DNA of 64,000 nt, taken from NCBI GenBank assembly GCA_041485695.1, contig JBGPJZ010000002.1, forward strand, positions 1,499 to 65,498, read 5' to 3'. Under the pieces are notes generated by a model, which was not told where the DNA came from, searched no databases, and saw nothing but the letters and a program-made list of their open reading frames with translations. Within the stretch, counting starts at the first letter, position 1, and each line of letters starts with the position of its first letter. Positions 15,079-59,026 of the stretch are shown here, one piece after another. Both the position numbers and the translations under genes were made by a program. The DNA is from Minisyncoccia bacterium. Lineage in GTDB: Bacteria; Patescibacteriota; Minisyncoccia; Phycocordibacterales; Phycocordibacteraceae.

Positions 15079-15086
15079 AAGCGAGT

Positions 15087-18498: not shown

Positions 18499-18900
18499 AT
18501 GAAAAACAAACTTATCTTGGTTTTCTTTATCTTCTCTCTCATTGGTTTCGCAGTTGGATACTATTTGCTTAAAATCTACGACTGCGAATATAGCGTATTT
18601 TGCTACAATCTTGCAACAAGGGCCTTCGCTCTCTACTACGGAATGCCTGCTCTTGCTCTAGTCTTTTCCATGCTGCTCTTCATCCCACGTGCGCTTGATG
18701 CATGGAAGAAGTTTGCAATATGGTTTGTACCGCTTGCGGCTTTACTCTTTATTTTCTATCCAGAACCCGGCTCTGGTGACTTATTCTCGCCTTATCCCGA
18801 GCAAATCTTTCAATGGGTCAGTGCTCTATATGTCGTGGTAAGCGTCGTCATTATTGCGATTGTATCGTTACGTACATCAGAGCCGTTAACTAATCGGTAA
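18499..18900 (+). CDS. Membrane protein (3-4 TM), hypothetical
   Basis: 133 aa, hydrophobic, with a Cys-containing loop. Confidence 0.35.
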   Translation: MKNKLILVFFIFSLIGFAVGYYLLKIYDCEYSVFCYNLATRAFALYYGMPALALVFSMLLFIPRALDAWKKFAIWFVPLAALLFIFYPEPGSGDLFSPYPEQIFQWVSALYVVVSVVIIAIVSLRTSEPLTNR

Positions 18901-20481
18901 CTCAACGATGAAGCGAGAGCCTTTGCCAGGGCCGTCGCTTTCGGCCCAGATTGTGCCCCCATGCCCTTCAACGAGCTGTTTCGCGACGTAGAGCCCCAAG
19001 CCCGTACCGGTAGTGTTCACTTTGTTCGCGCCCCTGGCGCGCGTGAACTTCTCAAAGAGGCCACCTATCTCCTCCTTCGGGATGCCTATGCCGGTATCTA
19101 AAATAGTGACGCGCGCCTTACCGTTTTCGCCTTTTACGGCAACCGTCACGCGCCCCTTTTCGGTGTATTTGATGGCGTTATCGACGAGGTTTGAAATGAC
19201 TTGTTTTATCTTGCCTACGTCTGCAGTCACCTTGAGCGCATCGGATGTTTCAAGCGTGAGGGCAAGGCCGCGCCGCTCGGCCACAGGATGCAATTCTTCA
19301 ACCGTTTTTTTAGTCACATCGGCAAGGTCGAAACTGCTCTTTTCATACTTCATCCGCCCCTGTTCGATGCGCGAGATATTCAAATAATCCTCAATCGAGT
19401 TGGCCATGTTGCGTGCCGAGTCGTTAATGCGCGACAAGGGCTCACGCATCTTTTCTGACGTTTCGCCATAATCCCCCTGCAAGATAAGCGAGGCGTAGCC
19501 TCGTATCGCCGTAATCGGCGCTCGCAGTTGGTGTGAGGCAATCGACAAAAACTCACTTTTCGCCTGATCAAGCTCCTTTAATTTCTCGTTCGCAATCTCG
19601 AGATTGAAAGTATCTTGGACAATCTTGATGCTCCCCAAAAGGATGATGATGAAGGCGGCGATATTAATAGCTACCGCACTGACGTTTGTCGAGTATACGA
19701 TATTCACAAAACTGAACACGGTCACCATAAAACCTAGGAACGCCGTGGCTGCGACTTTCAAGTTAAATAAATGGTGGCGATAAATCGCATATGAAATAAG
19801 TGCAACGAACGGGAGAATAAATAGTGCGGCAAGAGGAATGAAGCTCACATTGGCAAATACATTTGGCAAAATCACGTTGAAATTAAGAATGAGAATGGCC
19901 ATGACCGTCATTCCTATGGATACAGCCGTAATCTGCCTGCGTTCAGATAACTCCATTGTCTCGCTTCTCTTTTTAAACAAGAAAACGATGCTCGCAATCA
20001 ATAGCCCAAAGGCAAGAAGCATGAAAAGGAGGACCCCAGGAGCAGGATCCGCCCGTGTTACCTGGCCAATGGGAGCAAGCGACGCGATACCTGAAAAGAC
20101 GAATGGTGTGAGCGTTAGGATAGCGACAGCCCCCACCGCGGGAACGAGAACCCACTTATACCAATGTGGGAACACTACTTTTTCTTTAGGAAATACGTAG
20201 GCGAACTGGAAAAAGATGAAGGCATATAAAGTCGAGAAAAAGAGATGGAACCTGAGCGCCCACAAAATGCCATTGACAGTAGTAAACCTGTATTCAAGAT
20301 AGTTGGAGATGCTCCAAATAACGGTAATGACTGCGAAAGCAAAAAAAGTCTGGTTGGTTATGCTGGTGCGATTATTAAAAAGGATAACCGCGCCAAGTAG
20401 CGTTATGCCAGCGATAGCTACACCGACGCTCAAAAGATCAAGATTTATCTGAACGAGCTGACTAACGCCAGAGATGCCCAT
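18886..20481 (-). CDS. Sensor histidine kinase with polytopic N-terminal membrane domain
   Basis: About 8 TM helices, then a HisKA H-box (SHQLRAPITAIRGY) and an HATPase_c domain with N-box NLVDNAIKYT, DTGIGIP and GTGLGL. Confidence 0.85.
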   Translation of the reverse strand: MGISGVSQLVQINLDLLSVGVAIAGITLLGAVILFNNRTSITNQTFFAFAVITVIWSISNYLEYRFTTVNGILWALRFHLFFSTLYAFIFFQFAYVFPKEKVVFPHWYKWVLVPAVGAVAILTLTPFVFSGIASLAPIGQVTRADPAPGVLLFMLLAFGLLIASIVFLFKKRSETMELSERRQITAVSIGMTVMAILILNFNVILPNVFANVSFIPLAALFILPFVALISYAIYRHHLFNLKVAATAFLGFMVTVFSFVNIVYSTNVSAVAINIAAFIIILLGSIKIVQDTFNLEIANEKLKELDQAKSEFLSIASHQLRAPITAIRGYASLILQGDYGETSEKMREPLSRINDSARNMANSIEDYLNISRIEQGRMKYEKSSFDLADVTKKTVEELHPVAERRGLALTLETSDALKVTADVGKIKQVISNLVDNAIKYTEKGRVTVAVKGENGKARVTILDTGIGIPKEEIGGLFEKFTRARGANKVNTTGTGLGLYVAKQLVEGHGGTIWAESDGPGKGSRFIVELPIS

Positions 20482-44549: not shown

Positions 44550-46340
44550 TCAATACTCGTCTTCCGGGAAGAGTTCGCCGCCTAAGGTATTCACCTCCTC
44601 AAACGGAATCTCGCCAGCGAGTGCTCTCATGATAGCATCCTCGCGCATGGTGAGCATGCCGTCTTCGCGCGCCGCCGCGTAGACCCGCTCCTCAATCGGT
44701 TCCTTGAGGAGTATCTGCTCGAGCTTCTTGTTCATCCGCAGTATTTCATACACGGCGGTGCGGCCGCGCACCCCAAGAGGACAATCCTCGGTGGGCATCG
44801 CGTGATAAAACTCCTTCAAGGGCGGGAGCCCCCGGCGATACTGTTCAGGCAGATCGGCGAACTCTTTCTCGATAAGCATGCGGATGCTGTCTTTGATGGC
44901 AAACGGCTTCCCGGCTCCGTCGCACAATTTCTTCACGAGACGCTGGCCAATAACCGCAATTAAGGTCGGTGCAATCAGGTAGGGGTCGACTCCCATGTCG
45001 ACCAAGCGCGGGATGGCGCCTGCGGCGGTATTGGTGTGGATAGTTGAGAAGACGAGGTGGCCGGTAAGCGCAGCTTGCACCGCAAGCTGCGCTGTCTCCT
45101 TATCGCGTATCTCACCCACCATGATGACGTCCGGGTCTTGGCGGAGGATGGAACGAAGACCCGAAGCGAAGGTGTATCCTATTTCTGGACGCGTTTGCGA
45201 TTGCGAGACGCCGGGGATCTGGTACTCAACAGGGTCTTCAAGCGAAACGACGTTCATACGCTCGCGGTCGATCTCCGAGAGCATGGCGAACAAGGTCGTC
45301 GACTTGCCCGACCCAGTAGGGCCTGCAATGAGCACGATGCCGTACGCACTTTTAAGCATCTCGCGTATGCTTGCGAGCTTGTCACCCCGAAGCCCTACCG
45401 TCTCTAGGGTTGTGGTCGCCGCGGTCTGATCGAGGATGCGCATCTCTACTTTTTCTCCGTACTCGGTCGGGAAGGTGGAGACACGGAAGTCGATGCGGCG
45501 CCGCTTCTCTACCATCGCCGAAAAGCGGCCGTCTTGCGGTTTTCTCCTCTCGTCAAGCCGGAGCTGCGAAAGGATCTTGATGCGGGCGACGACGGCCTCA
45601 TGCACCTTTGCCGGCAGCTCAAGCGAGGTATGGAGCTCTCCGTCCATGCGGAAACGCACGCGCGTCTTCTCCGGAGTGGGCTCAATATGGATATCGCTCG
45701 CCTTGCCCTCAATGGCGTATCGCAAGATGGTTGAGACGATCTTGGTCACCGGCGCATCCTCCTTGAGCTTCCCCATAGTCGCGCTGCCCGAGAGATCGAG
45801 CGTCGCTTCGCTTTCTGCAACTGCCGCCGCTACGGCTTTTTTCTCCTCCTTCGCATCGGTCGATGAAGCACGGCTCACGGTCTCGAATTCAGAGAGCGCG
45901 GCGCCTACCTCGCCCGAAAGGTTCTTATACGCATCGATGACACGGTCGAAATCCGAAGGCGATATGAGGAAGAGCTTGTAGGGCATCCCGACTTTGGTCG
46001 AGATGAACTGCAAGGCATCCAATGCCTCGATATTATCTGGATCGACGATGCCTACCTCGAGAGCTCCGTTGTCTATCCGAAGCGGAGCGAACTCGTAGTG
46101 GCGTGCCGATTCCTCGGGAATATAGCCAAGCGCATCCTGGTCGACGGGCGGTTCACCGAGTACGCGACCCGGGATGCCGTATTCTTCACCGGCAATCCGG
46201 AGCGCATCGGCGAGCGCAACCCCATGCTCGTTCAAGACGTCTTCGAGCGAACGCTTCTGCTTAGAAATCGCAGCCTCCATGCTCGCACGATCTTTGGCTG
46301 AGATGAGACCCTTTTCTTCGATGAGGGCGAGGAGGTTCAT
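44550..46340 (-). CDS. pilB: Type IV pilus assembly ATPase PilB (GspE family)
   Basis: 596 aa; N-terminal GSPII_N-like region; Walker A GPTGSGKST, Asp/His boxes, tetra-Cys-like CxxC region. Confidence 0.9.
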   Translation of the reverse strand: MNLLALIEEKGLISAKDRASMEAAISKQKRSLEDVLNEHGVALADALRIAGEEYGIPGRVLGEPPVDQDALGYIPEESARHYEFAPLRIDNGALEVGIVDPDNIEALDALQFISTKVGMPYKLFLISPSDFDRVIDAYKNLSGEVGAALSEFETVSRASSTDAKEEKKAVAAAVAESEATLDLSGSATMGKLKEDAPVTKIVSTILRYAIEGKASDIHIEPTPEKTRVRFRMDGELHTSLELPAKVHEAVVARIKILSQLRLDERRKPQDGRFSAMVEKRRRIDFRVSTFPTEYGEKVEMRILDQTAATTTLETVGLRGDKLASIREMLKSAYGIVLIAGPTGSGKSTTLFAMLSEIDRERMNVVSLEDPVEYQIPGVSQSQTRPEIGYTFASGLRSILRQDPDVIMVGEIRDKETAQLAVQAALTGHLVFSTIHTNTAAGAIPRLVDMGVDPYLIAPTLIAVIGQRLVKKLCDGAGKPFAIKDSIRMLIEKEFADLPEQYRRGLPPLKEFYHAMPTEDCPLGVRGRTAVYEILRMNKKLEQILLKEPIEERVYAAAREDGMLTMREDAIMRALAGEIPFEEVNTLGGELFPEDEY

Positions 46341-46358
46341 GACGGTCCTCGATCTGGA

Positions 46359-46640
46359 TTAGTGGCCAATCGGTGCAAACGGGTCTTTGCGCCCCTTATT
46401 CTCAGGAGCAATCGGGGTCGCCGGATTCGTCAGAGACAGGAGGCGGGGATCGGAAAAGATGCTCGTGTCAAAAGAGATGGAGCTTAATTTCCCCGAAAGG
46501 TCAATGAACTGCTGCTCAGCGGGGCTCACAGGTTCCGAAGCGGTCAAGGGCTCGCTCGGAGGCGTACCTGTGAAAAAATACCAATAGCCGCCGATAAGGA
46601 GTAGCACCGCCGCGAGAAAGAAAAGGGGAGTTCTGGTCAT
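46359..46640 (-). CDS. Small membrane-anchored protein in pilus operon (PilP-like position)
   Basis: 93 aa; N-terminal TM then Pro/Ser-rich region. Confidence 0.35.
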   Translation of the reverse strand: MTRTPLFFLAAVLLLIGGYWYFFTGTPPSEPLTASEPVSPAEQQFIDLSGKLSSISFDTSIFSDPRLLSLTNPATPIAPENKGRKDPFAPIGH

Positions 46641-46650
46641 AATGTAGTCA

Positions 46651-47190
46651 TTAGCGGAGCCAATAGAGGCGCACCGTCATGTCGTAGCCGTACACGCCGG
46701 TATCGGAGCCTTTCACAGTGAGGTTCGTGACATCGAGCAGACGCGTGCTGTGTTCGATGCCTGTTATGAAGGTCCGGAATGCTTGATAGCTCCCGGTCGC
46801 TGAAAACGTCATATCGATCGAACCCACCTCGGTGGGTGGGGTTGTGACGTCACCCGCGCCTTGCGTCGGCTGGGGGACGCTTATGCTTGAAATCTGCACG
46901 CCTGAACGCGCGGCGAGAGCGGTGAGGCTAAGAATGGCACTTACGTTGTCGACCGAGCTTGGGAGCAAGGTCTCGAGACGCGCAATGTCTTCCGGCGTTA
47001 TGCGGTTCTTTTCCTCGGCAAGCGTTTTTTGCTTATCCCCGAAACTGGCGGCGGCATTAAGCGCTAACTGCTCGCGCGCGATGGTCGCTTGAATCGTGGT
47101 AACAGGGCCGGAGTAGGTAGGACTTATGTAGATGAAAAAAACTACGAAGGCTAGCACCAGTCCGGCAGCGGGTAGCATCCGGTTCATCAT
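46651..47190 (-). CDS. pilO: Type IV pilus biogenesis protein PilO-like
   Basis: 179 aa, N-terminal TM, coiled-coil, C-terminal alpha/beta domain; gene order after pilN. Confidence 0.6.
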   Translation of the reverse strand: MMNRMLPAAGLVLAFVVFFIYISPTYSGPVTTIQATIAREQLALNAAASFGDKQKTLAEEKNRITPEDIARLETLLPSSVDNVSAILSLTALAARSGVQISSISVPQPTQGAGDVTTPPTEVGSIDMTFSATGSYQAFRTFITGIEHSTRLLDVTNLTVKGSDTGVYGYDMTVRLYWLR

Positions 47191-47840
47191 GGCGTTTGGG
47201 ATGCTGAAGTCGTGGCGGTGGCTCCTGCGGACGGCAGCGACCCGGACGCGTCAGCAGCGCTACTTACCGAAAACGTGGTCAGGCTCTGGTCGAGATTGGC
47301 AGTAAGTGAAAACGAGACTTCCCCGTTCTTACCGATGCCGAGACCTGAAAATACGGCGTTCTTAATCTGGCTCTCTCTGCCTAGTGCGTCTGAAAATACG
47401 GCAAGGGCGTTGAAACTTGCTGCCGAACCTGTCGAGGACAGAACCGCGGTGTGGGCGTCGCTCGTCAAGATAGAAATCGAAGTAAGACGTACGGTCGTTG
47501 GCGCAAGGGACGCGATGAGGTCGAAGGCCTTCGAAAATATGAGGTGCCCGCTCAGAAGCCGCTTGCCCTCAGAGAGGTGGGTGTTAAGGCGGATAAAACT
47601 CTCCACCGTAGACGTATCGATCGACGTCTCGGCTTTTTGAAGATCGGCTTGCTTCGCTGCCTCTACGGTGCCGAGATACCAGTTGTAGGCGAATAGACCG
47701 CCTGCCGCGAGTAGCGCGAGGACAAAAGCCCCGTAGCCCAAGAATGCAAACGCGCCGCCAAAGTCAAAAGCGCTGTTCTTAAATGATAAAGACCCCGAGC
47801 GAGGCACGAACGAGGTCGGCACCGTAGGAGGAACTGCCAT
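47187..47840 (-). CDS. pilN: Type IV pilus biogenesis protein PilN-like
   Basis: N-terminal TM (FAFLGYGAFVLALLAAGGLFAYNWY) then periplasmic domain; overlaps pilO start by 4 nt. Confidence 0.6.
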   Translation of the reverse strand: MAVPPTVPTSFVPRSGSLSFKNSAFDFGGAFAFLGYGAFVLALLAAGGLFAYNWYLGTVEAAKQADLQKAETSIDTSTVESFIRLNTHLSEGKRLLSGHLIFSKAFDLIASLAPTTVRLTSISILTSDAHTAVLSSTGSAASFNALAVFSDALGRESQIKNAVFSGLGIGKNGEVSFSLTANLDQSLTTFSVSSAADASGSLPSAGATATTSASQTP

Positions 47841-47899
47841 AGTCAAAGTATACGGCACACACGCCACGCTTGGGCGGAGTGCGTGTGCATAAAGATGCG

Positions 47900-48982
47900 C
47901 TATCGGTGCTCCTCGAGTTTGCGGAGCGCAATGCCTACGGCGACGGCGAACTCCGGGCCGATTTCTTTCAAGACCGGGCGGATAAATGCGGGCGCCTCGG
48001 TCTTTGCAAAAGGGTCGGCGACCCGCACCTCTACCGAGAATGCCGACTGCGCATAGGTACCGAGGCCCTTGGTGACACCGCCCCCGCCTGTGAGTATCAC
48101 AGTAGCGATTGCCTTCCCGTGCACCGATTCATACTGCGCGAGGGCTCGGCGCGCTTCGCCGAAGATGCGGGAGTATACGAGTTCAATCGAGGAGTGTACG
48201 TCGAGGACGCCGTCCGCGGCTCCTGTGAGACCCTGCTCTTTTTTAAGAGCCTCGGCGGCGGCAATCGAAAGATTATTGCCTACGGCAATCGCCCGCGTCG
48301 CGTCTTGGCCGCCTGAAGTAATCGTATGCGAGAGCGCCACGACGCCGTGTTCGACAACGTAGGCTTTCGTCGTCGATGCGCCGATATCAAGAACCATGAC
48401 TGGCTTCACAGGCTCGTCGACAACCGCACGTATGGTGCTGAATATCTCTATTTCATAAAAACTCGCCGCGAGGTCTGCGCTCCGCACCACGTTTTGGAGC
48501 AGCGAGAGCTCATCGTTATGCACCGCGACGAGGAGGACGCGTACCCTTTCTTTGGCAGTACCCGCTAAGCTATCGTCAGGCACGACAAACCAATCGAGCT
48601 GCACTTCGTTAATGGGCACCGGGATATATTTACGCGCTTCAAGCTCGATAATCGTCTTCTGCTCCTCTTTGTTCTGTCGGCGCGGCAGCTCGATCAAGGT
48701 CAAGAGCGAACGGGCGAACGGGATACCGACCCCGCACTCTTTGGTCGTCACTTTCGCCTCGCGTATGAGGTCGCGCAAGGTCTCGGCGATTTTTTCAGCC
48801 GAGAGATTCGTCGCCTGCCCTATCTCGAGGTTCGCATAGGGGCCGAGCGCGAGCTCGCCATAGGTCTCAAGGACGGCTTTGCCGCCTTGTTTCTTGAGTT
48901 GCACGACTTTCAAGGACGATGAGCCGATGTCAACGCCGAGTACGCTAGTGCTTTTGCCGCCGAAAAGCCCGAAGAACGCCAT
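47900..48982 (-). CDS. pilM: Type IV pilus assembly protein PilM (actin-like ATPase fold)
   Basis: 360 aa; LGVDIGSSSLKVV phosphate-1 motif and VLDIGASTTK phosphate-2 motif. Confidence 0.9.
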   Translation of the reverse strand: MAFFGLFGGKSTSVLGVDIGSSSLKVVQLKKQGGKAVLETYGELALGPYANLEIGQATNLSAEKIAETLRDLIREAKVTTKECGVGIPFARSLLTLIELPRRQNKEEQKTIIELEARKYIPVPINEVQLDWFVVPDDSLAGTAKERVRVLLVAVHNDELSLLQNVVRSADLAASFYEIEIFSTIRAVVDEPVKPVMVLDIGASTTKAYVVEHGVVALSHTITSGGQDATRAIAVGNNLSIAAAEALKKEQGLTGAADGVLDVHSSIELVYSRIFGEARRALAQYESVHGKAIATVILTGGGGVTKGLGTYAQSAFSVEVRVADPFAKTEAPAFIRPVLKEIGPEFAVAVGIALRKLEEHR

Positions 48983-48996
48983 GTCAAAATAGTACC

Positions 48997-49614
48997 ATGT
49001 GGCAACGATTGCTAGATTTCATTTTTCCCATCCGTACCGACGAGGAGATTGTCCGAGCACTTACACTCGAGCAATTTCTTTCCCGCCTTGAACCGCAACT
49101 TGAGGAGCGTACCAATCCGGCAACAGTGGCTCTCTTCCCTTTTACCGACCGGCGGGTACGCGCCGTCATCCATGAAGCCAAATATCACGGCAATACGAAA
49201 GCCTTTGATTTCTTAGCTGCAGCGCTCGCGGAATATCTACGTGATGATGACCGCTTTGACGGCTTAACTGATTGTGTGCTTGTGCCGCTCCCGCTTGGGG
49301 CAAAGCGCCGCCAAGAGCGCGGATTTAACCAAGCCGAAGAGATTGCGCGGCGAGTGGCACAGGAGCTCGGCCTCCCGCTTGTAACCGACCTCCTTATTCG
49401 CACTCGCGAAACAGTTTCGCAAGTATCCCTGCCGCGCGAAGCGCGAGCTAAGAATATGCGCGGCGCTTTCAGCGCCGCGCATCCTGCCAATCCAAAACTC
49501 ACTTATATATTGATTGACGACGTCACGACCACCGGAGCTACCCTCTCGGCCGCCATCTCTGCCCTTAAGGCAGCTGGCTCTACCCAAATCCTCCCCATCG
49601 CCCTTGCTCATTAA
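48997..49614 (+). CDS. comFC: ComF-family phosphoribosyltransferase-domain competence protein
   Basis: PRTase motif YILIDDVTTTGATL at the C-terminus; divergently transcribed from pilM. Confidence 0.75.
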   Translation: MWQRLLDFIFPIRTDEEIVRALTLEQFLSRLEPQLEERTNPATVALFPFTDRRVRAVIHEAKYHGNTKAFDFLAAALAEYLRDDDRFDGLTDCVLVPLPLGAKRRQERGFNQAEEIARRVAQELGLPLVTDLLIRTRETVSQVSLPREARAKNMRGAFSAAHPANPKLTYILIDDVTTTGATLSAAISALKAAGSTQILPIALAH

Positions 49615-49700: not shown

Positions 49701-50144
49701 ATGAGGAAGGTTCTTTTCGTCTGCTTTGGCAACACCTGCCGGAGCCCCATGGAGGAGGCGATTTTCCGTGAGATGCTTGAAAAGCTCGGCATCGAAGATC
49801 TCAGCGTCGAAAGCGCTGGCGTCAATCAAGCTTCTGCCGGCCAACCGATTGCTCCCTTCTCGGCGCAAGAGCTCCGGAATCGCGGCATCAACCACGATCG
49901 TCACACGAGCCGGTATGTCGGCGACATTGGCCCACTTGACGACTTCATCCGCATCATCTGCGTTGGAGACAAGGAGGCAGCGACTCTCACCGCCCTCTTC
50001 CCTGATGTCGTGAATCGAACATCAGTCATGCCGATCGACAACCCGTGGGAGAAGGGTGAAGAAGCCTATCGCCTCTGCGCGATTCAAATCGAGGAGCTCA
50101 TGGGCGCACTCGTCGACAGTGTCGTCGCCGAAATCAGGCGCTAA
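49701..50144 (+). CDS. Low-molecular-weight protein-tyrosine phosphatase / ArsC-like
   Basis: P-loop CFGNTCRSPMEEA (C-x5-R-S) at the N-terminus and a DP-like motif region. Confidence 0.8.
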   Translation: MRKVLFVCFGNTCRSPMEEAIFREMLEKLGIEDLSVESAGVNQASAGQPIAPFSAQELRNRGINHDRHTSRYVGDIGPLDDFIRIICVGDKEAATLTALFPDVVNRTSVMPIDNPWEKGEEAYRLCAIQIEELMGALVDSVVAEIRR

Positions 50145-50169
50145 CCCTCAATAATCAGTTCAACCAACC

Positions 50170-50206
50170 GGACCTGTAGCTCACGCTACGGGTCCGCTCT
50201 TTTTTA
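50170..50206. terminator. Bidirectional intrinsic terminator
   Basis: GGACC-t-GTAGC-tcac-GCTAC-g-GGTCC compound hairpin followed by GCTCTTTTTTATAAT; it overlaps the stop codon of the minus-strand gene. Confidence 0.5.
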
Positions 50207-51722
50207 TAATCGTTACAATTCCCTTTTCGGCGTCTATCTCAATCTCATCGCCGTCTTTCAAGACTTTAGTCGCGATTTTTGTTGCGATGACACAGGGCTT
50301 ATTAAATTCACGCGACATGATGGCAGCGTGAGAAAGGAGCCCTCCCTCGTCGGTCACTATGGCTGATGAGCGTTTCATCGCTGGGACGTAATCAGGGTTC
50401 GTCATCGGACACACAAGTATTTCACCCTCAAGGAGCGTATGCGCCTGGGTTGGGTCGAGCGCCACTCTCACTTTCCCTCGTACAAATCCTTTACAGGCGA
50501 CCTGGCCGCGTAGTTCAGTAATTGTGGTGTCAACTTTATTGAGCTCCGTATCAATCCAGGTGCTTATCGCGTGCCCCTCCTCTCCTACCGCCAAGCGTTG
50601 TTCGCCACCGATAATAGCCATCGCAAATCCTTTCCTTCGTTCCTCTATCACTTTCGCCAAGACGGTTTTATCTGTCATGAGAGCTTCAAAGATTTCTCTC
50701 GAGAGAAGAAATTTCATGTCGACAAACGCGACGCCGATTCTTTTTGCAACTAACTGCATAAAGTCGAGATAGCGCGATGATGAAATATACGCCTCTTCAA
50801 TCCCCGCAGTTAACCCATAACCGAGTTCTCGAGCATTTTCAATATGAAGAACCAGTTGCGAATCCGTTTTAATCTCTTCAATGATTCTTTGCGCGATGTG
50901 CTCATTCTTCTCTGCGGCCTTCTTTTGTATCTCGAGGTTCTCTTTGAAATTCTCTTTTTGAGCCTTGTGTACCCTCTCGACGAGTTGGGCATATGACATC
51001 GGGAGGAGTGGGCTTAAAATAAATGTTGTGAGCCAATCATACTTTTCTAAGTACTCCTTTGCTTCTGCCTTAAACCGGGGGTCATTTGCAAAGTCATCAT
51101 TTTTATCAGCAAGCGAGACAAGCTTGCACATGTCCTCTTGTTCAAGCTGAAAGGCTGTTTTCTTTATAGGGAACACCAGCGTAAGTAAAGCTTCATCAAT
51201 AGCAACAATCGCCTCTATTTCTTTTCGATGCTTCTCGAGTCCCTCTTTAACTCGGTCAGTTAAGATGTTCTCCTTAGAGACGTACCAAGGGTAGTAGAAC
51301 CAGGGCACGAGTTTGATAAAACTCGCATCCATCTTTTGCCAATATGATGCAAGCTCTTCATTGGTGATGCCCTCATTTTGTATTGCTCTGTTCACTATGT
51401 CAGCTTCTGCATTAAATGTTCTGGGGAACTCTACGGTAGATTTTAGAAAGTGCTGCAGAGCCTCTGGATTATCTAGCTTCTCCCTCAATCCTTTAAATAA
51501 GATTTGTTTTTGTGTTGGGATATCGTACCCCTTGCTTGAATCGGTGAAAAGATAGTCGAGCGTATCTGTGGTACCCGTTATCCATGGGATGAGGTATTGC
51601 GAAAGGGCGCGGCAAAAGAAATCGCAGAGGGAGATTGGCTGTTCTCCGCGCTGTTGAAACTCATACTCCCATTGTGTTAGGTCGATATCCTCCCGTTTGA
51701 GCGTTTTGACTTCGTAATCCAT
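50181..51722 (-). CDS. Protein with unknown ~380-aa N-terminal domain plus C-terminal PEP-utilising-enzyme mobile (phosphohistidine) domain
   Basis: C-terminus …CPMTNPDYVPAMKRSSAIVTDEGGLLSHAAIMSREFNKPCVIAT… has the GGxxxHAAIxxRE phosphohistidine swivel-domain signature. Its start overlaps the stop of the upstream gene. Confidence 0.7.
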   Translation of the reverse strand: MDYEVKTLKREDIDLTQWEYEFQQRGEQPISLCDFFCRALSQYLIPWITGTTDTLDYLFTDSSKGYDIPTQKQILFKGLREKLDNPEALQHFLKSTVEFPRTFNAEADIVNRAIQNEGITNEELASYWQKMDASFIKLVPWFYYPWYVSKENILTDRVKEGLEKHRKEIEAIVAIDEALLTLVFPIKKTAFQLEQEDMCKLVSLADKNDDFANDPRFKAEAKEYLEKYDWLTTFILSPLLPMSYAQLVERVHKAQKENFKENLEIQKKAAEKNEHIAQRIIEEIKTDSQLVLHIENARELGYGLTAGIEEAYISSSRYLDFMQLVAKRIGVAFVDMKFLLSREIFEALMTDKTVLAKVIEERRKGFAMAIIGGEQRLAVGEEGHAISTWIDTELNKVDTTITELRGQVACKGFVRGKVRVALDPTQAHTLLEGEILVCPMTNPDYVPAMKRSSAIVTDEGGLLSHAAIMSREFNKPCVIATKIATKVLKDGDEIEIDAEKGIVTIIKKSGPVA

Positions 51723-51723
51723 G

Positions 51724-54700
51724 TTACTTAAGAATCGTCACGATTCCCGTGTTGGCGTCCATTTCGATTTCATCGCCATCTTTTATTACCTCGCTTGCGT
51801 TACCAGTGCCGACGATGCAGGGAATATTTAACTCGCGGCTCACGATTGCTGCATGCGAGAGCATGCCGCCCTGGTCGGTGATGATGCCTCCTGCTTTTTT
51901 GCACGCTGGCATTAATTCGGGCGAGGTCGTCTCTGCAATCAAGATATCGCCCTTCTGCATAGCATCCATCAGGTGATGCAGTGTATCAAAGTTGTCGTAG
52001 CCCGAAACGATGATTCGCGCCCTGCCCCGCGCAATACCCGGGTGAGCTGTGGTGCCTGTTACCGTCTCGCCATGGCTAGCGTTGCCTACGAAGCTCTCAA
52101 TCGCGTGCCGAGCCGAGGGGCCTGTTTTACGCACCGTGCTACCTTCGACACCTATGATGTAAAAAGCATTCTCGCGATGCGCGATCTCCTCTTCGGGCAC
52201 TTTCGCGGCGTCAAAAAGGTTGAGGATCTCTTGGCGCGAATATTGCTGCAGGGTGCGCTCGGATATGTTGAAACGCTCCCCAAGACTCTTTAACAGTTTC
52301 GGCAAAACAGCGTCAGCGCCAAAAAAGATTGAATTCAAGAACTCTCGACCCTCGTTCTTCAGTTCGCCCATGAGCGAGAGTCTCTCTTCAATCCCTTTGT
52401 CTTTCGTCTCTTTTGATTTTTTGTACGCGCCGTCCATATAAAAGAACTCCGTCTTCGAATAGTAGAAAAAGAGCCGGGCGATATCGTTGAGCAAACGCTC
52501 TACTTCCTCTTTTGAGAGCTTGCTGTAGGCGAGGCTTTCCGCAATCATTCGTATCTCTTTCATGTAGGCGCGGAATGCGTTTTGAAAGTGGGTGAAGTCC
52601 GCAGCATCTGAAATGAGTCTGGCTCCTTCGGCAAGAGTTTTCTGTACAGTCGTATGCGAAAGATAGCTGGTGTAAAAATCATCAATAACCGTGGTCAGGG
52701 CACCGAGCGTTTGGTAATGCTCCATCCAAATGTCGTCGATAAAGTAGCGCAGGCCCTGCACGCGAAAGAGCCGTTGCCACTCATCTTTGCTTCCAAATGG
52801 ATGACTCCGTTTGAGAATTGCTACTGTCCCCTTCTTTGTATCAACTTCGATCTCATCTCCATTATTGAGGATTTTCGTAGCGAAGCCCGTCTCGACTATA
52901 CAGGGTATCCCCATTTCGCGGGCGGTGATAGCGGCATGCGAAAGCATGCCGCCGGCGTCAGTAACAACTGCAGCCGCTTTCTTAAACGCTTCTATAAGCT
53001 CTGGGTCTGTACTATCTGAGACCAAAATTTCTCCCTTTTGCATTTCGTGCATCTGCCCTTGCAAGATTTCCCGGTTGCTATAATCACGAATAATTTTACG
53101 CACCTTCCCGCGGACAGTCGGCCCTGTATGCGCTGTCTTACCGGTAAGCACTTCTATAATTGAGTCCCCAACATTCTCAACTTTGGCGATAAACCTCTGG
53201 GCGGCATCCCCTACAAGAAACTCCACACCACCTTTCGTCTTATGGAGTACCCAGGCCTGCGTGCGCGCCTCGAGCGCTTGCTCGCTAACATGGGTACCAC
53301 CAAACAACGCGAGTACTTCGGCTCCTCGATACCAGTTCACAGTTTCGGTGGTAAGCGAGCGTTGTTTGGCGACTTTTGCTACTAACGTTTGCAGGTATGA
53401 ATCCGCGCCGAAAAAGATTTTCTCCATGCGCTCGCGTATCTCGTTTTTAAAACTCTCAACCAGAGCGACGTTCTCTTTCGCCGCCGGGTCGGTAGCGCTT
53501 CTCTCGAACACTTTATCCCAATACATATAGTCGAAGTAGGCATACTGCCCGCAAATCTTACTGATGAGCGTAAATACATGCTCCGCATCTTTGCGCGCAA
53601 TCTCCTTCTTTTGCCTTAGCATCTTGATTTCTCCCAGCCCTTGCTCAACGAGCGCCGTAAGCGACGCGATGACCTCCTTAGTATCGGCAGGAGTGCGTCT
53701 AAGCCCGATGTCTCGAGCTTCTTCTGTGGTTTTCTTCTCCCAGTAAGAGAGCTCTTTGCCGCCATGGCCTAACACGGCTGATTCAACAGGCATGTAACCC
53801 TCATTGACCACATCCTCGAAAAGAAATGGTGTCCCTTGAGCGCTGAATGCAAAAACAAACTCCGGCTCGGCTCTGGCATTTAAAATGCGTACGATGCCGT
53901 TATCAGCATCGACTTCAACTAAGTCCCCATCTTTTAAGACTTCAGTCGCGATTTTGGTGCCTACGATACACGGCTTCTTCATTTCGCGTGAGACGATTGC
54001 TGCGTGGCAAGTTAAACCGCCTTCGTCGGTAATAAACGCGGCTGCTTTTTGCATATAGGGCACGTACTCTGGGTTTGTCATCGGAGCAACAAGGACATCG
54101 CCCACGCCGATTTTGGCAATCTCTTTTTTATTCATCACCAAGCGCACCGTACCAGCAACCTTCCCCGGGTACGCTGTCTGACCTTTAATCTCTTTTGCGC
54201 CGTCTGCATCAATCTGCTCGAGCTTCAGGTTCTTTTCTTTAAGAATCTGCTCAAGCTTTGAAAGCGGCCAGATATCACCCTTAATCAAGAAGCACCCCTC
54301 TTGATACCTCTGCTCAAGTGTTGCGATAAGCTCTTTGTCTGCATGTTTTGCAAGCTTTACGGCCTCCTCTGGAGTGATGACGTACGAGAACTTTGCATAC
54401 TCGGGGAACTCTGTCTCCCAGAATTCGACAAAATTTGAGCTCATCTTGTCTGTGTACTGCTCGGTCTCCTCACGAATCTTCAAGATACTTTCTCTAAAAT
54501 CAGGCTGCAAGTCGGGATTATTCGGAAGTTCGAAAAAGACTGTGTTCATCGCAGACCAAAAATCAACGATGTGGCGGTAGTATGAGTACATCTCGTCAAC
54601 GCTCTTAAGTTTCTGCGAGCCTGACAGATACTGTGCTGCTTTAGCCCATGACTTCTCCATCTTTTCTACAACGCGAAGCCGAAGGTTCGCATCATCGTGC

Positions 54701-56541
54701 AATTTTTGAATTGAGATCTTTGAAAGTCTCCCCAGTTCTTTTTGTGAATACCAAACGTCGCCCTGCTTCTCCTTGCCTCGTTCGATGAAAAGGTTTGCAT
54801 TAATTTCTTCACCCAAAAACTCCTTTATCCCTTCCCTATCGCACAGATCCCACAACGAAAAATAGAAGAGAGCCTTCTCTCTCGAATAGACTTTTGAAAG
54901 TGTCGTTTGCCCAAGTTGCCAATTCTTTTCTTGAAGTTCTTTTGGTAAGTTTTTGAGGAGCCCGAACGAATCGTTCGTGAGGTACCAGCCTTTCAGGCGT
55001 TCTTGGAGCTCGGCGGTTGGAGGAAAGTTACCACTCGTCGCTTCTTCAGGCGTGAGTACGTACGCGTATTCAGCCATGTGCGGATAGAGGTGTTTGACTG
55101 TCTTCAGATAGAGTTCGTCCGACTTGTCAGAGTATTCTTGCGTTTCTGCCCGTAGAGCCAGAGCTTCATCACGAATTTTTTGTGGCAACGCCGAGATATC
55201 TGGGGTAATAAACATAACCACCATAGGTGCCCACCATTCGAAAAAGTGTTGGGTGTAATCGCGAAACTCCTCGCGAGTGAGCGGTTCTTTTTTCGTAAGA
55301 TAATGGAGCATCACCTTCCAATGGACGTTGAAAGTTTTGGTGACTTGAGGGAACCATTGTGGGTCTGACGCTTTCTTAACTACATTTTCTTCATAGATAT
55401 CGAACTCGTATTGCGAGTAGTAAACGTAAAGCAAATCTCGAGTATCCGGCCGTATAAAAAGTGCCTCCTCGGTATTGCGTCCTGCCCATGCCGCCTCCGT
55501 TTTACAGTTCCCATCACGCCAAGCTACTGCTTCGTATAAAGAAAGCTCCCTCGTAAAATACTTCTCGAGCACTGCAGGTATCACCGCCTTAGATTTCTGC
55601 GAGAGGGTGGTGATCGGGCGGCTTTGGACAATATAAAACGTGCTGCCTTCAAACGCCCACTCGATATCGCAGGGGAAGCCGTAGTGATTCTCGATTTTAA
55701 GGATGAGTTCGGAGAGTTCGAGAACTTGTTTTTCGGTGAGTACTTGCGACGAGGCTCGCGGCTCGGGGATATCCTTCCACTCATTCCCCCCACCACTTGC
55801 TCGATACAAGGCACGGGTTTGCGAACTTACGTTGGTATCAATGATCCGCCGCGGAGCTTTCTCTACCACGTAACTATCGGGCGTTACTTGCCCCGAAACT
55901 ATTGCCTCGCCAAGCCCAAACCCTGCTTCAATGATGAGTTGATTATAATCTTCAGTGACAGGGTGCACCGAAAAGGCGATGCCCGACACTTCGCTCGCGA
56001 CCATTTTTTGTACGACGACCGCTACTGAAATCTTTTGTGTGTGGAGATTCTTTTCAAACCGGTAAAAGATTGCGCGGGGGGTAAAAAGCGATGTCCAGCA
56101 TCGCTGCACATTCGTAAGCAAGGTCTCTTTCGTCGTATTCAAATAACTATCAAGCTGCCCAGCCCACGCCGCCGAAGCAGAGTCTTCAGCAGTTGCGCTT
56201 GAGCGCACTGCCACATATTCGGCGCCCAATTCTTTAAAATTCTTTTCAATATCTCGTGCAATATCGTCGGGCATTTTCGCCCCAAGAATCATCTGCTGAA
56301 TCTTTTGCGAAGCTTGCTCAACCGTATGCATCTCTTCGCGATTCACGGTGTGAAGCGCCGTATCTATTTCAGCCAGCAAATCTGTCTCTTCAAGGAATCG
56401 GTCGAAGCTGCTCGAAAGTACGACAAACCCGGGCGGTACCTGTATCCCAGCTTGGGTCATTTCTCCTAAGGACGCACCTTTCCCTCCCGCTATCGCGGCA
56501 TCGTTTTTACTTATCTCCCCAAATGGTTTTATGAGGGTCAT
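51724..56541 (-). CDS. Giant (1605 aa) PPDK/PEP-synthase-like protein: N-terminal ATP-grasp (PPDK_N-type) domain followed by three repeats of [unknown domain + PEP-utilising phosphohistidine domain]
   Basis: N-terminus GGKGASLGEM…VAVRSSATAEDS…EAIVSG…WAFEG…IVQSRPIT matches PEP-synthase/PPDK/rifampin-phosphotransferase nucleotide-binding domains. Three swivel His domains: [48 protein letters not shown] and [24 protein letters not shown]. Confidence 0.75.
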   Translation of the reverse strand: MTLIKPFGEISKNDAAIAGGKGASLGEMTQAGIQVPPGFVVLSSSFDRFLEETDLLAEIDTALHTVNREEMHTVEQASQKIQQMILGAKMPDDIARDIEKNFKELGAEYVAVRSSATAEDSASAAWAGQLDSYLNTTKETLLTNVQRCWTSLFTPRAIFYRFEKNLHTQKISVAVVVQKMVASEVSGIAFSVHPVTEDYNQLIIEAGFGLGEAIVSGQVTPDSYVVEKAPRRIIDTNVSSQTRALYRASGGGNEWKDIPEPRASSQVLTEKQVLELSELILKIENHYGFPCDIEWAFEGSTFYIVQSRPITTLSQKSKAVIPAVLEKYFTRELSLYEAVAWRDGNCKTEAAWAGRNTEEALFIRPDTRDLLYVYYSQYEFDIYEENVVKKASDPQWFPQVTKTFNVHWKVMLHYLTKKEPLTREEFRDYTQHFFEWWAPMVVMFITPDISALPQKIRDEALALRAETQEYSDKSDELYLKTVKHLYPHMAEYAYVLTPEEATSGNFPPTAELQERLKGWYLTNDSFGLLKNLPKELQEKNWQLGQTTLSKVYSREKALFYFSLWDLCDREGIKEFLGEEINANLFIERGKEKQGDVWYSQKELGRLSKISIQKLHDDANLRLRVVEKMEKSWAKAAQYLSGSQKLKSVDEMYSYYRHIVDFWSAMNTVFFELPNNPDLQPDFRESILKIREETEQYTDKMSSNFVEFWETEFPEYAKFSYVITPEEAVKLAKHADKELIATLEQRYQEGCFLIKGDIWPLSKLEQILKEKNLKLEQIDADGAKEIKGQTAYPGKVAGTVRLVMNKKEIAKIGVGDVLVAPMTNPEYVPYMQKAAAFITDEGGLTCHAAIVSREMKKPCIVGTKIATEVLKDGDLVEVDADNGIVRILNARAEPEFVFAFSAQGTPFLFEDVVNEGYMPVESAVLGHGGKELSYWEKKTTEEARDIGLRRTPADTKEVIASLTALVEQGLGEIKMLRQKKEIARKDAEHVFTLISKICGQYAYFDYMYWDKVFERSATDPAAKENVALVESFKNEIRERMEKIFFGADSYLQTLVAKVAKQRSLTTETVNWYRGAEVLALFGGTHVSEQALEARTQAWVLHKTKGGVEFLVGDAAQRFIAKVENVGDSIIEVLTGKTAHTGPTVRGKVRKIIRDYSNREILQGQMHEMQKGEILVSDSTDPELIEAFKKAAAVVTDAGGMLSHAAITAREMGIPCIVETGFATKILNNGDEIEVDTKKGTVAILKRSHPFGSKDEWQRLFRVQGLRYFIDDIWMEHYQTLGALTTVIDDFYTSYLSHTTVQKTLAEGARLISDAADFTHFQNAFRAYMKEIRMIAESLAYSKLSKEEVERLLNDIARLFFYYSKTEFFYMDGAYKKSKETKDKGIEERLSLMGELKNEGREFLNSIFFGADAVLPKLLKSLGERFNISERTLQQYSRQEILNLFDAAKVPEEEIAHRENAFYIIGVEGSTVRKTGPSARHAIESFVGNASHGETVTGTTAHPGIARGRARIIVSGYDNFDTLHHLMDAMQKGDILIAETTSPELMPACKKAGGIITDQGGMLSHAAIVSRELNIPCIVGTGNASEVIKDGDEIEMDANTGIVTILK

Positions 56542-56565
56542 GTCTCGCTAATATAGCGCTTTTCA

Positions 56566-58254
56566 TTAGAGAATTCGAACGGTGCCGTGGTTGGCGCGGA
56601 CTTCAACTAGGTCGCCAGTTTTGATGACTTGGGTCGCATTTTTAGTGCCAATCACACAGGGCTTACCAAGCTCGCGAGAGACGATGGCGGCATGGCATGT
56701 AATGCCGCCTTCATTTGTGACAATCGCCGCCGCTTTCTTCATAAGCGGTACGAACTCTGGTCGCGTCATGCCGGTGACGAGAATCTCCCCTTCTTTGAAT
56801 TGATCGAATTCTTTTTGAGAGAGGATTATACGCGCGATACCTTTCGCAAAACCCTGCGAAGCAGTCTGCCCCGTTAAGGTCTTGCTCACTCCGCCAGCGA
56901 GAATCGCTTCAAAACCGGTTCGGATAGACACAGCCTCTTTACCCTCATACATTTTGTAATGACCGTCCTCCACGGCCACCATCACCCCTTCGGTCGCACG
57001 ACGCTCAAGTACTGAAGGCGGGATGAGCCCTTTCTGCACATTCTCGACTTCGTCGAAACTTAGGTACTGCAAGTGGTTGCGCGGGATACCGGTGTGGAGT
57101 GCGATTGATTGGAGCACGGCCTCGAGGATATGAAAGCCCATGAGGTTCACCTTTTTACGATGCTCACGCCAGTATGTAAGGCGCTGAAAAAAGAAGAGCG
57201 GGTTCGTCGTGAGCTTGTGGGCATGTAATACCGCATTTACCGCACGCGTCTTCTTCACCGCATAGGTATCGAGTTGATCAAACTCTTCTGCAAAGAGTTT
57301 CTTGTCACGAGTGTAGTGCAGGATTTCCTCCTTCACATCAGCCACGCTTATGTGATTGATGTACGCGTAATTAGATCGGTAGTAGTCGAACGCGGCGCGA
57401 TACTGGTCAATCTTAGCCGCGTTTTTATGGACGAATTCATCCACGCTCTTCTCGGCAATTGTGGTACGACTCGACATAAGCTTCTTGATAAGAGAGAGGA
57501 GCGCGTATTTACGCTCGTCGGCAAAAGTTGGCTCGGTCGGAGTGGTGAGGATTTGAATTTCTTCTTTAGTGAACGAGTGTTGCTTTGCGATCTCTTCAAT
57601 CTTTTCGTGATCTACGCCGATATCGAACGCATCGATAAAAAGACTCGTGCTCCAAAACGCGTCGTAGAGCGCACGAACTTTTTCGAAAAGCGCGTTAAAT
57701 TTTGCAGCGTCAAGTGAGGCTGGCGTTATTTGCTGTGTCTCGAGATAGAGCTGTTCTATGTCAGAAGCATGGCCAAGATATTTGTGATAGAGATTTTCGT
57801 ATGCGGGAGAATTTGCGTACTCTGCATAAAACGCAGTTGCGAGCGAGCGCAGCGACTCGGTATTCCAATAGATCTCCCCATAATCGCCCTTATAGAAGGC
57901 GTTTAAGATGCCGTAACCATATTCGGCTCCCTGATGGAGAAGTCGATAGGTCCCAGCACTCAAGGACCACGGCCAGGCGGTATAGGGGACGATATTCCCC
58001 TCCTGCTTATAGACCTGCTTGGGGTACACAATGGACGCTTCTTTTTTGGGCTCTGGAATGTCGAGCTCCACGAGCTCGGAAAGGGGTACGCGGTAGGCAT
58101 GAGAGATGCTTTCGAGGGTGCTAAGACGTATGCCATCGGCTTCCCCCCGTAGGAGCGCCCCTATGGTATTGCGGTTGAGCCCGGTATCCGCAGCCATTTC
58201 TAGCCCGGTTTTACGTAGCTTTTTAGCCAATTCAGCTATTTTGAGTTTTGCCAT
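56566..58254 (-). CDS. XRE-type HTH fused to unknown domain and C-terminal PEP-utilising phosphohistidine domain
   Basis: N-terminus [37 protein letters not shown] is a Cro/C1-type HTH; C-terminus [24 protein letters not shown] is a swivel His domain. Start placed at MAKLK (58254), downstream of the predicted promoter, rather than the 58284 track start. Confidence 0.65.
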
Positions 58255-58269
58255 ATGCCTAGTTAGATA

Positions 58270-58303
58270 GGCAATATATAGCATATTGCCACTTTTTATG
58301 CAA
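58270..58303 (-). promoter_or_regulatory. Putative sigma70-like promoter with overlapping palindromic operator for the phosphohistidine-array operon
   Basis: Minus-strand TTGCAT (58298-58303), 17-bp spacer, TATATA (58275-58280). The perfect inverted repeat GGCAATAT-atagc-ATATTGCC (58270-58290) overlaps the -10 element. Confidence 0.35.
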
Positions 58304-58318
58304 GTAAAATAGATGTGT

Positions 58319-58334
58319 GACTGTTTTAACAGTC
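58319..58334. promoter_or_regulatory. Second perfect palindrome GACTGTT-TT-AACAGTC in the divergent control region
   Basis: 7-bp perfect inverted repeat with 2-nt spacer, between the divergently transcribed SixA-like and HTH genes. Confidence 0.35.
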
Positions 58335-58441
58335 TTTTGATACTGAAAAGCTATTGACTTTAAAGTCCGTTATGCTAAGCTATATCCAGGTTAAAAGTTC
58401 GCCTAAAAATCTCTCAACCGCCAAACCCATAGGGGGACCAA

Positions 58442-59026
58442 ATGGCAGATACGAGAATAACGATTCTTCGTCACGGAAACGCCGTGCCGCCTACGGATGA
58501 TTCACATCAAGCCGATATGGCTCGAGCACTCTCCGGCAAAGGCCAGGGGCAAGCCGAGTTGCGTAGGAAGATTCTTGGCAACCCGAAGTTCGACCTCATC
58601 CTTTCGTCGCCAGCGGCCAGGGCGGTCCAAACTGCCCTCATCGTCAGCGATCAGCCCGAAAGTACGGTGCAAAAGATGCATCAGTTGTGTTGGACAGAAG
58701 GATCCGACTTCGCGAAAGCGATTGACGCGATGTTCCGTGAGCTCGGCTACAAGCCGCTCGCGGATTATCGGAAACATCCGCAAGGCCATCTGCTCGACGA
58801 GCAGGCCGGCGAGACGTGGACGTTGTTCCAAGCGTTTCCGTTCAGCGGAAAGTCCGCCCTCATCACCGGACACGCCGTCATGAGCAATGCTCTCGCCTGC
58901 CAAGCCATCGGCGGATACGATCCTTCCGAATGGCGCTACCTGTCGGAAACGTCATTCGGCGAGTGCGAGGGCGTGACTCTCGAGTTCCGTACTGGCGAGT
59001 TCGTCGGGATGGACGTGCACGTGTAA
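58442..59026 (+). CDS. Histidine-phosphatase superfamily protein, SixA-like (putative phosphohistidine phosphatase)
   Basis: ITILRHGNAV (catalytic RHG), …DLILSSPAARAVQTA… matches the SixA/PGAM branch 1 pattern; 194 aa. Confidence 0.6.
   Translation: MADTRITILRHGNAVPPTDDSHQADMARALSGKGQGQAELRRKILGNPKFDLILSSPAARAVQTALIVSDQPESTVQKMHQLCWTEGSDFAKAIDAMFRELGYKPLADYRKHPQGHLLDEQAGETWTLFQAFPFSGKSALITGHAVMSNALACQAIGGYDPSEWRYLSETSFGECEGVTLEFRTGEFVGMDVHV

Follow-up and report, generated by a model that had tools for sequence, protein, structure and literature searches.

The 64-kb stretch of Minisyncoccia DNA analysed here (the window) contains an operon of three genes, A, B and C, which encodes a single ATP-grasp domain, five phosphohistidine-carrying 'swivel' domains and one helix-turn-helix (HTH). 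What might one nucleotide-binding domain do with five carriers, one of them fused to a putative DNA-binding domain? A sequence-only reading of the window had noted that each swivel is preceded by a domain, X, and had offered two answers: a set of small-molecule kinases resembling rifampin phosphotransferase (RPH), or a histidine phosphorelay whose output is the HTH protein. Our models place X as a homologue of the RPH substrate-binding domain, and the operon is a mid-sized, well-preserved example of a family of module arrays found in bacteria of the Candidate Phyla Radiation (CPR) and in DPANN archaea. With a rough probability of 0.55, we favour a multi-acceptor, ATP-dependent dikinase system of the RPH/HpeHI type, in which the modules would share one ATP-grasp domain, each would have its own acceptor and A would act as a regulator.

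One ATP-grasp domain and five swivel modules

Open reading frames (ORFs) were taken from all six frames, and window coordinates are positions in the 64-kb stretch. The three genes, of 572, 1605 and 513 aa, are co-directional and tightly packed on the minus strand, with exactly the ORF coordinates that the sequence-only reading had given. The genes, their domains and the operon end are as follows (PEP, phosphoenolpyruvate; PPDK, pyruvate phosphate dikinase).

56566..58284, minus strand: gene A, HTH-X-His, 572 aa (ORF, Pfam, orthologous clusters, AlphaFold2 model)
58063..58236, minus strand: XRE/Cro-type HTH of A, about residues 17-74 (Pfam, Foldseek)
56890..58032, minus strand: X domain of A, long class, about residues 85-465, RPH-type fold (Foldseek, 51-sequence alignment)
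56569..56889, minus strand: swivel phospho-His domain of A, His531, GGITCHAAI (PEP-utilizers, E 1e-25; motif)
51724..56541, minus strand: gene B, ATP-grasp-X1a-X1b-His-X2-His-X3-His, 1605 aa (ORF, Pfam)
55579..56541, minus strand: PPDK_N/ATP-grasp nucleotide-binding domain of B, residues 1-321 (PF01326; aligns to the ATP-grasp domains of PEP synthase and RPH)
54196..55578, minus strand: X1 of B, residues 322-782, two short-class X units, X1a and X1b (module identities, motifs)
53878..54195, minus strand: swivel domain 1 of B, His846, GGLTCHAAI (Pfam, motif)
53125..53877, minus strand: X2 of B, residues 889-1139, short class, motif I-R-E-R-M-E-K (module comparison, local profile)
52807..53124, minus strand: swivel domain 2 of B, His1202, GGMLSHAAI (Pfam, motif)
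52045..52806, minus strand: X3 of B, residues 1246-1499, short class, motif K-N-E-G-R-E-F-L-N
51727..52044, minus strand: swivel domain 3 of B, His1563, GGMLSHAAI (Pfam, motif)
50181..51722, minus strand: gene C, stand-alone X-His, 513 aa (Pfam, phmmer, module orthology)
50169..50196, no strand: terminator-like hairpin with a 12-bp stem and 8 G-C pairs, at the operon 3' end between C and an LMWPc gene

A and B are separated by 24 nt, as had been read, whereas the stop-start overlap proposed for B and C gives way to a 1-nt spacer (TAA-c-ATG). The operon has a G+C content of 0.47-0.50 against 0.55-0.58 in its flanks, and a protein identical to B is present in a public collection.

Pfam assigned one PPDK_N, five PEP-utilizers and one XRE-type HTH domain to A, B and C together. 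The ATP-grasp domain, which the sequence-only reading had already recognised as the only one in the operon, is in B (PF01326 on residues 17-321, E 5.9e-98), where PEP-utilizers was found three times (E 5.9e-79). The PEP/pyruvate TIM barrel (PF02896), expected to be missing, gave no match in A, B or C at E up to 1, and a canonical PEP synthase or PPDK was rejected on that ground. Beyond the operon, phmmer searches of the six-frame ORFs detected no further ATP-grasp or swivel domain in the window.

The phospho-carrier histidines are A531, B846, B1202, B1563 and C465, each in a GGxx[CS]HAAI motif. All five copies of the signature first written as GG[LM][TL][CS]HAAI are present, although GGITCH of A falls outside the [LM] class. 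Two estimates had to be corrected: the X domains, put at 300-380 aa, measure 387 (A), 463 (X1 of B), 251 (X2), 255 (X3) and 403 aa (C), and the swivel domains are 40-57% identical instead of 50-70%. In C, X covers about residues 1-401 (long class) and the swivel residues 402-513, with His465 (PEP-utilizers, E 4.2e-25). The position of the regulatory Thr of PEP synthase and PPDK (GGxT[CS]H) is occupied by Thr in A and in module 1 of B and by Leu in the other three window modules; across the related loci described below, it is Thr in 291 of 380 modules. X1a and X1b sit in tandem without a swivel between them, suggesting either the loss of a swivel or the insertion of an extra substrate domain. 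A similar double X, 35% identical to that of B, was seen in P0015.

Fold, transfer residues and age of the X modules

The sequence-only reading could assign X to no family, a gap that structural comparison now fills with the substrate-binding (rifampin-binding) domain of RPH. We modelled A with AlphaFold2 from an alignment of 51 orthologues (predicted local distance difference test score, pLDDT, 92.7; predicted TM score, pTM, 0.83); a model of the X3-His3 module of B had a pLDDT of 94.3. In Foldseek searches against PDB, six RPH entries ranked at the top for the A model (E 5.5e-13 to 1.9e-11, 563-648 aligned columns, TM up to 0.51) and six Listeria RPH structures did so for X3-His3, with E values of 5.5e-13 to 2.3e-8 for the two models together. 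The non-RPH matches of both models span the swivel or the HTH alone. Since RPH is the only match extending beyond these domains for either model, the predicted structures indicate that both size classes of X are RPH-type substrate-binding domains, the short class (~250 aa) being a reduced version. At the sequence level, residues 231-506 of C align to residues 601-866 of Listeria RPH (5FBS; phmmer, E 2.6e-17). On the other hand, the RPH equivalog models of NCBIfam score far under their curated cutoffs with B (NF041857, 458 bits with four stretches summed versus 999; NF000283, 333 versus 1700), which speaks against RPH proper.

In RPH, Arg666, Glu667 and Lys670, together with Gln337, carry out the second phosphotransfer, and the Arg-Glu...Lys block persists in distant RPH clades that do not act on rifampin (Stogios 2016, PMC4844700). 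The phmmer alignment places A-R-E of C on Y665-R666-E667 of RPH, and the block W-R373-E374-H-R376-K377 of A is invariant among the 51 aligned sequences. For the family as a whole, 380 modules were collected from 84 loci. Their global MAFFT alignment (2799 columns) was too gappy in the X columns, and we used instead an iterated local hidden Markov model, which captured 355 of the 380. The consensus of this profile is LTYWRDERK, with Asp or Glu in the Glu667 column in 258 of the 355 modules, Lys in the Lys670 column in 248 and the adjacent Arg in 271. The phospho-carrier His is present in 379 of 380 modules. Judged by these alignments, the family has the putative second-transfer block of RPH, Arg-Glu-x-x-Lys. 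In the window, the corresponding motifs are R-D-E in X1a, F-R-E-S-I-L-K in X1b, I-R-E-R-M-E-K in X2, G-R-E-F-L-N in X3 and A-R-E-L-G in C. Every window X thus has an Arg-Glu or Arg-Asp dyad; the Lys is complete in A only and shifted or absent in the others.

The modules had also been taken for recent duplicates. However, each has a far closer orthologue elsewhere than any paralogue in the operon, where identity does not exceed 25% (the value for X2 versus X3), and this orthology rules out recent tandem duplication. X3 shares 60% identity with a module of P0006, X1b 54% with the first module of P0007 and X1a 44% with the first module of P0010, while for the X domain of C the value is 56-57% against internal fused modules of P0042, P0005, P0002 and L004. 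C stands alone, yet its orthologues are modules inside giant proteins; fused and free modules are therefore interchangeable. Across the family, the best match of an X domain lies in another locus for 363 of 376 domains. The 376 modules represent 240 types, nine of which are common to CPR- and DPANN-labelled loci, and arrays hold one copy of each type (13/13 in L047, 11/11 in L058 and 5/5 in the window). An exhaustive search with the X domain of C returned 102 representative clusters among 1.84 billion, indicating that individual X types are rare and very divergent. Taken at the level of sequence, the data fit modules that are ancient, non-redundant types with maintained distinct specificities, subject to frequent fusion and fission.

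Arrays in CPR bacteria and DPANN archaea

The architecture is not the one-off it had seemed. B has more than 6000 homologues, and the best 120 of these are all 1000-2700 aa long and carry one ATP-grasp domain and 2-5 swivel motifs. The HTH fusion recurs in about 50 full-length orthologous clusters of A (identity 40-61%). Those of the best homologues of B that are named come from Patescibacteria (CPR) and DPANN archaea, and the named members of the A family are all Patescibacteria. A scan of species-representative genomes yielded 76 loci, whose records are labelled explicitly as CPR (27) or DPANN (23), left unspecified (11) or labelled otherwise (15, mostly from one automated third-party annotation, TPA, series). 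The sequence-only reading had allowed that this might be a widespread, already annotated family: it is widespread, but its annotation is the generic 'PEP-utilizing enzyme'. Eleven loci (L008, L009, L038, L039, L058, L059, L064, L076, L029, L041 and L056) come from automated TPA records of metagenome-assembled genomes (MAGs) labelled 'uncultured Gammaproteobacteria' or 'Methanosarcinales'. As the HTH-X-His proteins of L008 and L009 are 51-53% identical to A of the window, these labels are probably wrong.

Using the window domains as queries, we annotated 83 loci, which hold 396 X-His (swivel) modules versus 41 ATP-grasp domains. Exactly one ATP-grasp domain is present in 37 of the loci and more than one in 2. 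Adjacent genes of the system are co-directional in 296 of 303 cases, 175 of them at most 20 nt apart, and the number of modules per locus reaches at least 14. In a Candidatus Taylorbacteria locus (L047:1-21800), 15 consecutive stand-alone X-His genes occupy 22 kb and run to the end of the locus. Extreme fused forms of the same system are a single 4768-aa ORF of a Nanoarchaeota locus (L069:1319-15625), with an ATP-grasp domain and 10 swivel modules, and a single 3761-aa ORF from Woesearchaeota (L062:5192-16477), with an ATP-grasp domain and eight modules. Stand-alone ATP-grasp genes of ~315 aa also occur inside arrays.

PADLOC returned weak HTH-only matches for A and none for B or C; with no match to a defence system, anti-phage defence was rejected. 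A search for viral carriage found no viral copy of C, and the A-family profile gave swivel-domain matches only, in giant-virus MAGs.

Three further features bear on gene A and on the flanks of the operon.

58255..58441, no strand: divergent promoter region between A and the His_Phos_1 gene, holding a perfect inverted repeat
58442..59026, plus strand: His_Phos_1 gene (histidine-phosphatase superfamily), divergent (PF00300, E 5.9e-12)
49701..50144, plus strand: LMWPc gene (low-molecular-weight phosphatase), convergent (PF01451, E 1.7e-19)

The N-terminus of A matches HTH_26 (residues 26-74, E 6.7e-8) and HTH_3 (E 3.6e-4) in Pfam, and its modelled structure resembles the HTH domains of CylR2 and Stl (Foldseek, TMt 0.83-0.87). 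Sequence and model agree on an HTH of the HTH_3/HTH_26 type (XRE/Cro-C1), for which DNA binding is predicted. The true start of A is probably Met11 at 58254, since the consensus of the 51 orthologues opens there and residues 1-8 of the model have pLDDT <50. Just upstream of this start lies the perfect inverted repeat, GGCAATAT-N5-ATATTGCC (58270-58290), which is a possible candidate operator. Upstream of the HTH-X-His genes of nine loci (the window and eight orthologous ones), no common palindrome was found.

Only 9 of the 396 modules carry an HTH. In six of the nine loci (the window, L006, L007, L011, L012 and L026), an array or ATP-grasp cluster has HTH-X-His as its leading co-directional gene; the L006 array combines it with an HD-like gene and a stand-alone ATP-grasp gene. 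In one Patescibacteria genome (L005:10001-19570), an HTH-X-His gene stands solitary, outside an array, ~800 bp upstream of a co-directional run encoding 2-hydroxyacid dehydrogenase, RpiB, Rpe, transketolase, fructose-bisphosphate aldolase and glyceraldehyde-3-phosphate dehydrogenase, a setting that hints at a link between HTH-X-His and sugar-phosphate metabolism.

The two phosphatase-family genes that flank the operon are possibly associated with it. The best NCBIfam match of the His_Phos_1 protein is SixA, at 34.6 bits versus a cutoff of 74.5 and over the N-terminal 70 residues only. Its divergent arrangement recurs in L001, L084 and L085, members of its blast cluster adjoin the system in L047 and L048, and two other metagenome contigs have His_Phos_1, A and B in the identical arrangement. 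A search started from the window His_Phos_1 protein returned that protein alone. LMWPc genes lie within or beside arrays in six other loci. L047 has both families (His_Phos_1 at 8210-8884, LMWPc at 16387-16872) embedded on the strand opposite to its array. We regard the phosphatase association as a lead, not a result. The families that recur in or beside arrays are TrmB-type regulators (12 loci, in archaeal arrays), HAD hydrolases (10), HD-like proteins (10), phosphotransacetylase (9), His_Phos_1 (9, plus 5 with a weakly SixA-like 301-aa family), LMWPc (7), hexapeptide transferase (6) and isochorismatase (5). In archaeal arrays, the regulator of the TrmB family (sugar-sensing type) is often on the opposite strand (L056:7785-8519, L022:8270-8998, L014:16457-19652), and a set of Woesearchaeota arrays also has phosphotransacetylase, hexapeptide transferase and two unknown proteins of ~360 and 323 aa.

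The wider surroundings of the operon in the window hold pilus, ComF-like, purL/purQ and phosphatase genes. Directly downstream (44550-49614) is a type IV pilus cluster (PilB-like ATPase, PilO-, PilN- and PilM-like proteins) of the kind typical of CPR genomes, together with a ComF-like phosphoribosyltransferase. A second low-G+C patch (0.44-0.47) at 18886-20481 (minus strand) and around it, 18-24 kb, unrelated to the operon, encodes a methyltransferase, a glycosyltransferase and a 7TM-type sensor histidine kinase, with no adjacent response regulator among the ORFs scanned. At 15005-15954, four tRNA genes (Thr-CGT, Thr-GGT, Asp-GTC and Met-CAT) lie within 1 kb on both strands.

Proposed mechanism, alternatives and known systems

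Domain content, fold, conserved residues, modular genomics and module orthology, as observed, can be read together with a known precedent. HpeHI, CreHI and PpsAB form a two-component subfamily of RPH-like dikinases, in which one protein, H, combines the RPH substrate domain with a swivel and receives its phosphate in trans from a second, ATP-grasp protein, I, with no stable complex between the two; HpeH can by itself shuttle phosphate from one substrate to another (Dexter et al. 2025, PMC12167813). The fold, the Arg-Glu block and this precedent lead us to favour the first proposal of the sequence-only reading, RPH-like kinases with diversified X domains and one ATP-grasp domain serving several His domains in trans, without recent duplication as the source of the diversity. 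By analogy, we infer the following cycle. The N-terminal ATP-grasp domain of B would use ATP to phosphorylate the swivel His, releasing AMP and Pi, and would serve all five swivels, the three of B as tethered domains and the other two, in A and C, in trans. A charged swivel would then dock on its own RPH-type X domain, where the Arg-Glu(-Lys) site would pass the phosphoryl group to a bound acceptor. Since the five X domains are old and mutually divergent, the acceptor is expected to differ from module to module. Small molecules are the likeliest acceptors, and phosphorylation would serve to scavenge, activate or neutralise them. A most likely controls the operon in response to a ligand, to its own phosphorylation state or to both, and product recycling or the resetting of His~P may fall to the two flanking phosphatases, His_Phos_1 and LMWPc.

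Several observations weigh against this mechanism. X2, X3 and C have Arg-Glu without the Lys, and Gln occupies the position equivalent to Arg666 in 89 of 355 modules; given these differences, the modules could include inactive carriers. X1a lacks its own swivel. Phosphatases beside the operon would be counter-productive for a purely detoxifying kinase, and the presence of at least one phosphatase-family gene in 28 of 83 loci is a raw count, uncontrolled for genomic background. Finally, VadK (Rv1127c) of Mycobacterium tuberculosis has an ATP-grasp domain and a swivel, lacks a TIM barrel, autophosphorylates and has a regulatory role (PMC13400623); by this analogy, such a protein can be a regulatory histidine kinase and not a metabolite kinase.

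VadK, as a PPDK-derived regulatory kinase, is also a precedent for the second proposal of the sequence-only reading. In such a phosphorelay, the ATP-grasp domain would be an autokinase, X-His units would serve as ligand-sensing carriers or phosphate sinks, HTH-X-His would be the output, and the SixA-like and low-molecular-weight phosphatases would reset the system. Enzyme I of the phosphotransferase system (PTS) hands phosphate from the same swivel fold to HPr, as textbooks describe. A conserved family that heads arrays joins the HTH to a swivel that can be phosphorylated, and the divergent His_Phos_1 gene, in an arrangement that recurs, encodes a protein whose best match is a phosphohistidine phosphatase, even if that match is partial and under its cutoff. 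Nevertheless, few modules carry the HTH; the residues for transfer to a bound substrate are conserved throughout the family, nowhere more completely than in A, and arrays of at least ten one-of-each modules are hard to fit to a relay. We know of no precedent for phosphate transfer from swivel to swivel. A phosphorelay is thus disfavoured as a general explanation, and we consider it quite unlikely, while it stays in play for the HTH member. With the same chemistry as in the favoured reading, the modules might form a chemical-immunity or resistance repertoire, each inactivating a different antibiotic or xenobiotic as RPH does rifampin. RPH is the closest solved fold, the many module types with one of each per array resemble immunity and resistance gene arrays, nine types are common to CPR and DPANN, an XRE-type regulator is present, and the low G+C content of the operon relative to its flanks suggests transfer; moreover, rph-like genes have been reported in surveys of the CPR resistome (PMC8651080). 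Set against this are the RPH scores far below cutoff, the lack of a PADLOC match or a viral copy, and a distant RPH-clade member that confers no rifampin resistance (Stogios 2016, PMC4844700). In addition, the phosphatases, phosphotransacetylase, TrmB-type regulators and sugar-metabolism genes in or beside arrays point to metabolism. On balance, a resistance repertoire seems unlikely. Very improbable, in our judgement, are activating enzymes of the PigC/RedH type, which phosphorylate a carbonyl for condensation, or glucan-water-dikinase-like action on a polymer. Such enzymes do occur in the superfamily, the PigC and RedH models of NCBIfam match B at E 1e-133 to 1e-134, and Pfam gave a faint GWD1_pHisD match; yet the scores of ~446-450 bits, driven by the ATP-grasp and swivel domains, compare with cutoffs of 1300-1350, and no biosynthetic cluster, carbohydrate-binding module or polymer-handling genes were found near the operon. 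To our knowledge, CPR genomes are also generally without secondary metabolism.

The favoured dikinase system can be extended, tentatively and at clearly less than even odds, to a PTS-like but ATP-driven branched phosphotransfer in CPR and DPANN, in which one charger would feed a dozen or more non-redundant modules per genome that phosphorylate, and in this way trap, activate or neutralise, a wide range of host or environmental molecules, with HTH modules directly linking its state to transcription. If so, it would take up a few percent of minimal genomes and be a signature adaptation of the episymbiotic lifestyle; single loci do spend 15-22 kb on these modules despite the tiny size of CPR and DPANN genomes. 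Should the modules be kinases with many different acceptors, they would show which compounds these symbionts import, activate or detoxify, and they would amount to a large natural library of swivel-dikinase specificities on one charging domain, useful for enzymology and engineering. If a dikinase module acts as the sensor, HTH-X-His proteins would make up a novel type of one-component regulator. There is also a practical consequence: 'PEP synthase' and 'PPDK' are the routine annotations of such genes, and metabolic reconstructions of these lineages can be distorted as a result.

How does the system compare with known ones? Closest in layout are HpeHI, CreHI and PpsAB (phenylphosphate synthase). 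Each X-His unit corresponds to their H component, and stand-alone X-His proteins, which had been thought unprecedented, are therefore not new: HpeH, CreH and PpsA (PMC12167813) and NCBIfam PRK08296 were already known. A and C share the H layout and related loci have a stand-alone I of ~315 aa, whereas the only ATP-grasp domain of the window sits in one protein with three H modules. In the known systems, a single H is paired with each I, the substrates are phenolic and the gene context is catabolic (carboxylase, phosphatase). In contrast, here we find ~10 H modules per ATP-grasp domain, many of which follow it in tandem on one polypeptide, an H module with an HTH attached, no aromatic-catabolism genes, and CPR bacteria and DPANN archaea as hosts.

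With RPH and the PRK06241-type 'PEP synthase' family, the system shares the ATP-grasp domain, the helical substrate domain, the C-terminal swivel His and the Arg-Glu-x-x-Lys block, and RPH has the closest fold to both X size classes. RPH is single-module, however, and the swivel and ATP-grasp sequences here are nearer to true PEP synthase. The best PDB sequence matches are PEP synthases (8a8e and 9dae), and A and module 1 of B have a PEP synthase-like GGxTCH motif. PEP synthase and PPDK differ in having the PF02896 barrel; in our system, the swivel is C-terminal to a different substrate domain and the architecture is multi-module. Among PEP synthase models, TIGR01418 scores 620 bits with B versus a cutoff of 739.75, and NF005057 exceeds its cutoff (648 versus 598) only by summing four repeated stretches. 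VadK resembles the system as an ATP-grasp and swivel His protein without a TIM barrel; it is single-module and has no RPH-type X, HTH or arrays. As a functional analogy only, the PTS (enzyme I, HPr and EII) also has one energy-coupling enzyme, with the same swivel-His fold, that feeds many substrate-specific branches. Unlike the PTS, the donor here would be ATP and not PEP, there is no HPr, EII or membrane component, and the branches are paralogous copies of the carrier.

Our literature searches, which included CPR and DPANN genomics papers, returned no description of tandem-swivel proteins, X-His arrays or HTH-X-His. Dikinase chemistry and the H/I split are established. What appears to be undescribed is the fusion of many H modules behind one ATP-grasp domain, the ~10:1 arrays, the HTH-H fusion family and the apparent concentration in CPR and DPANN.

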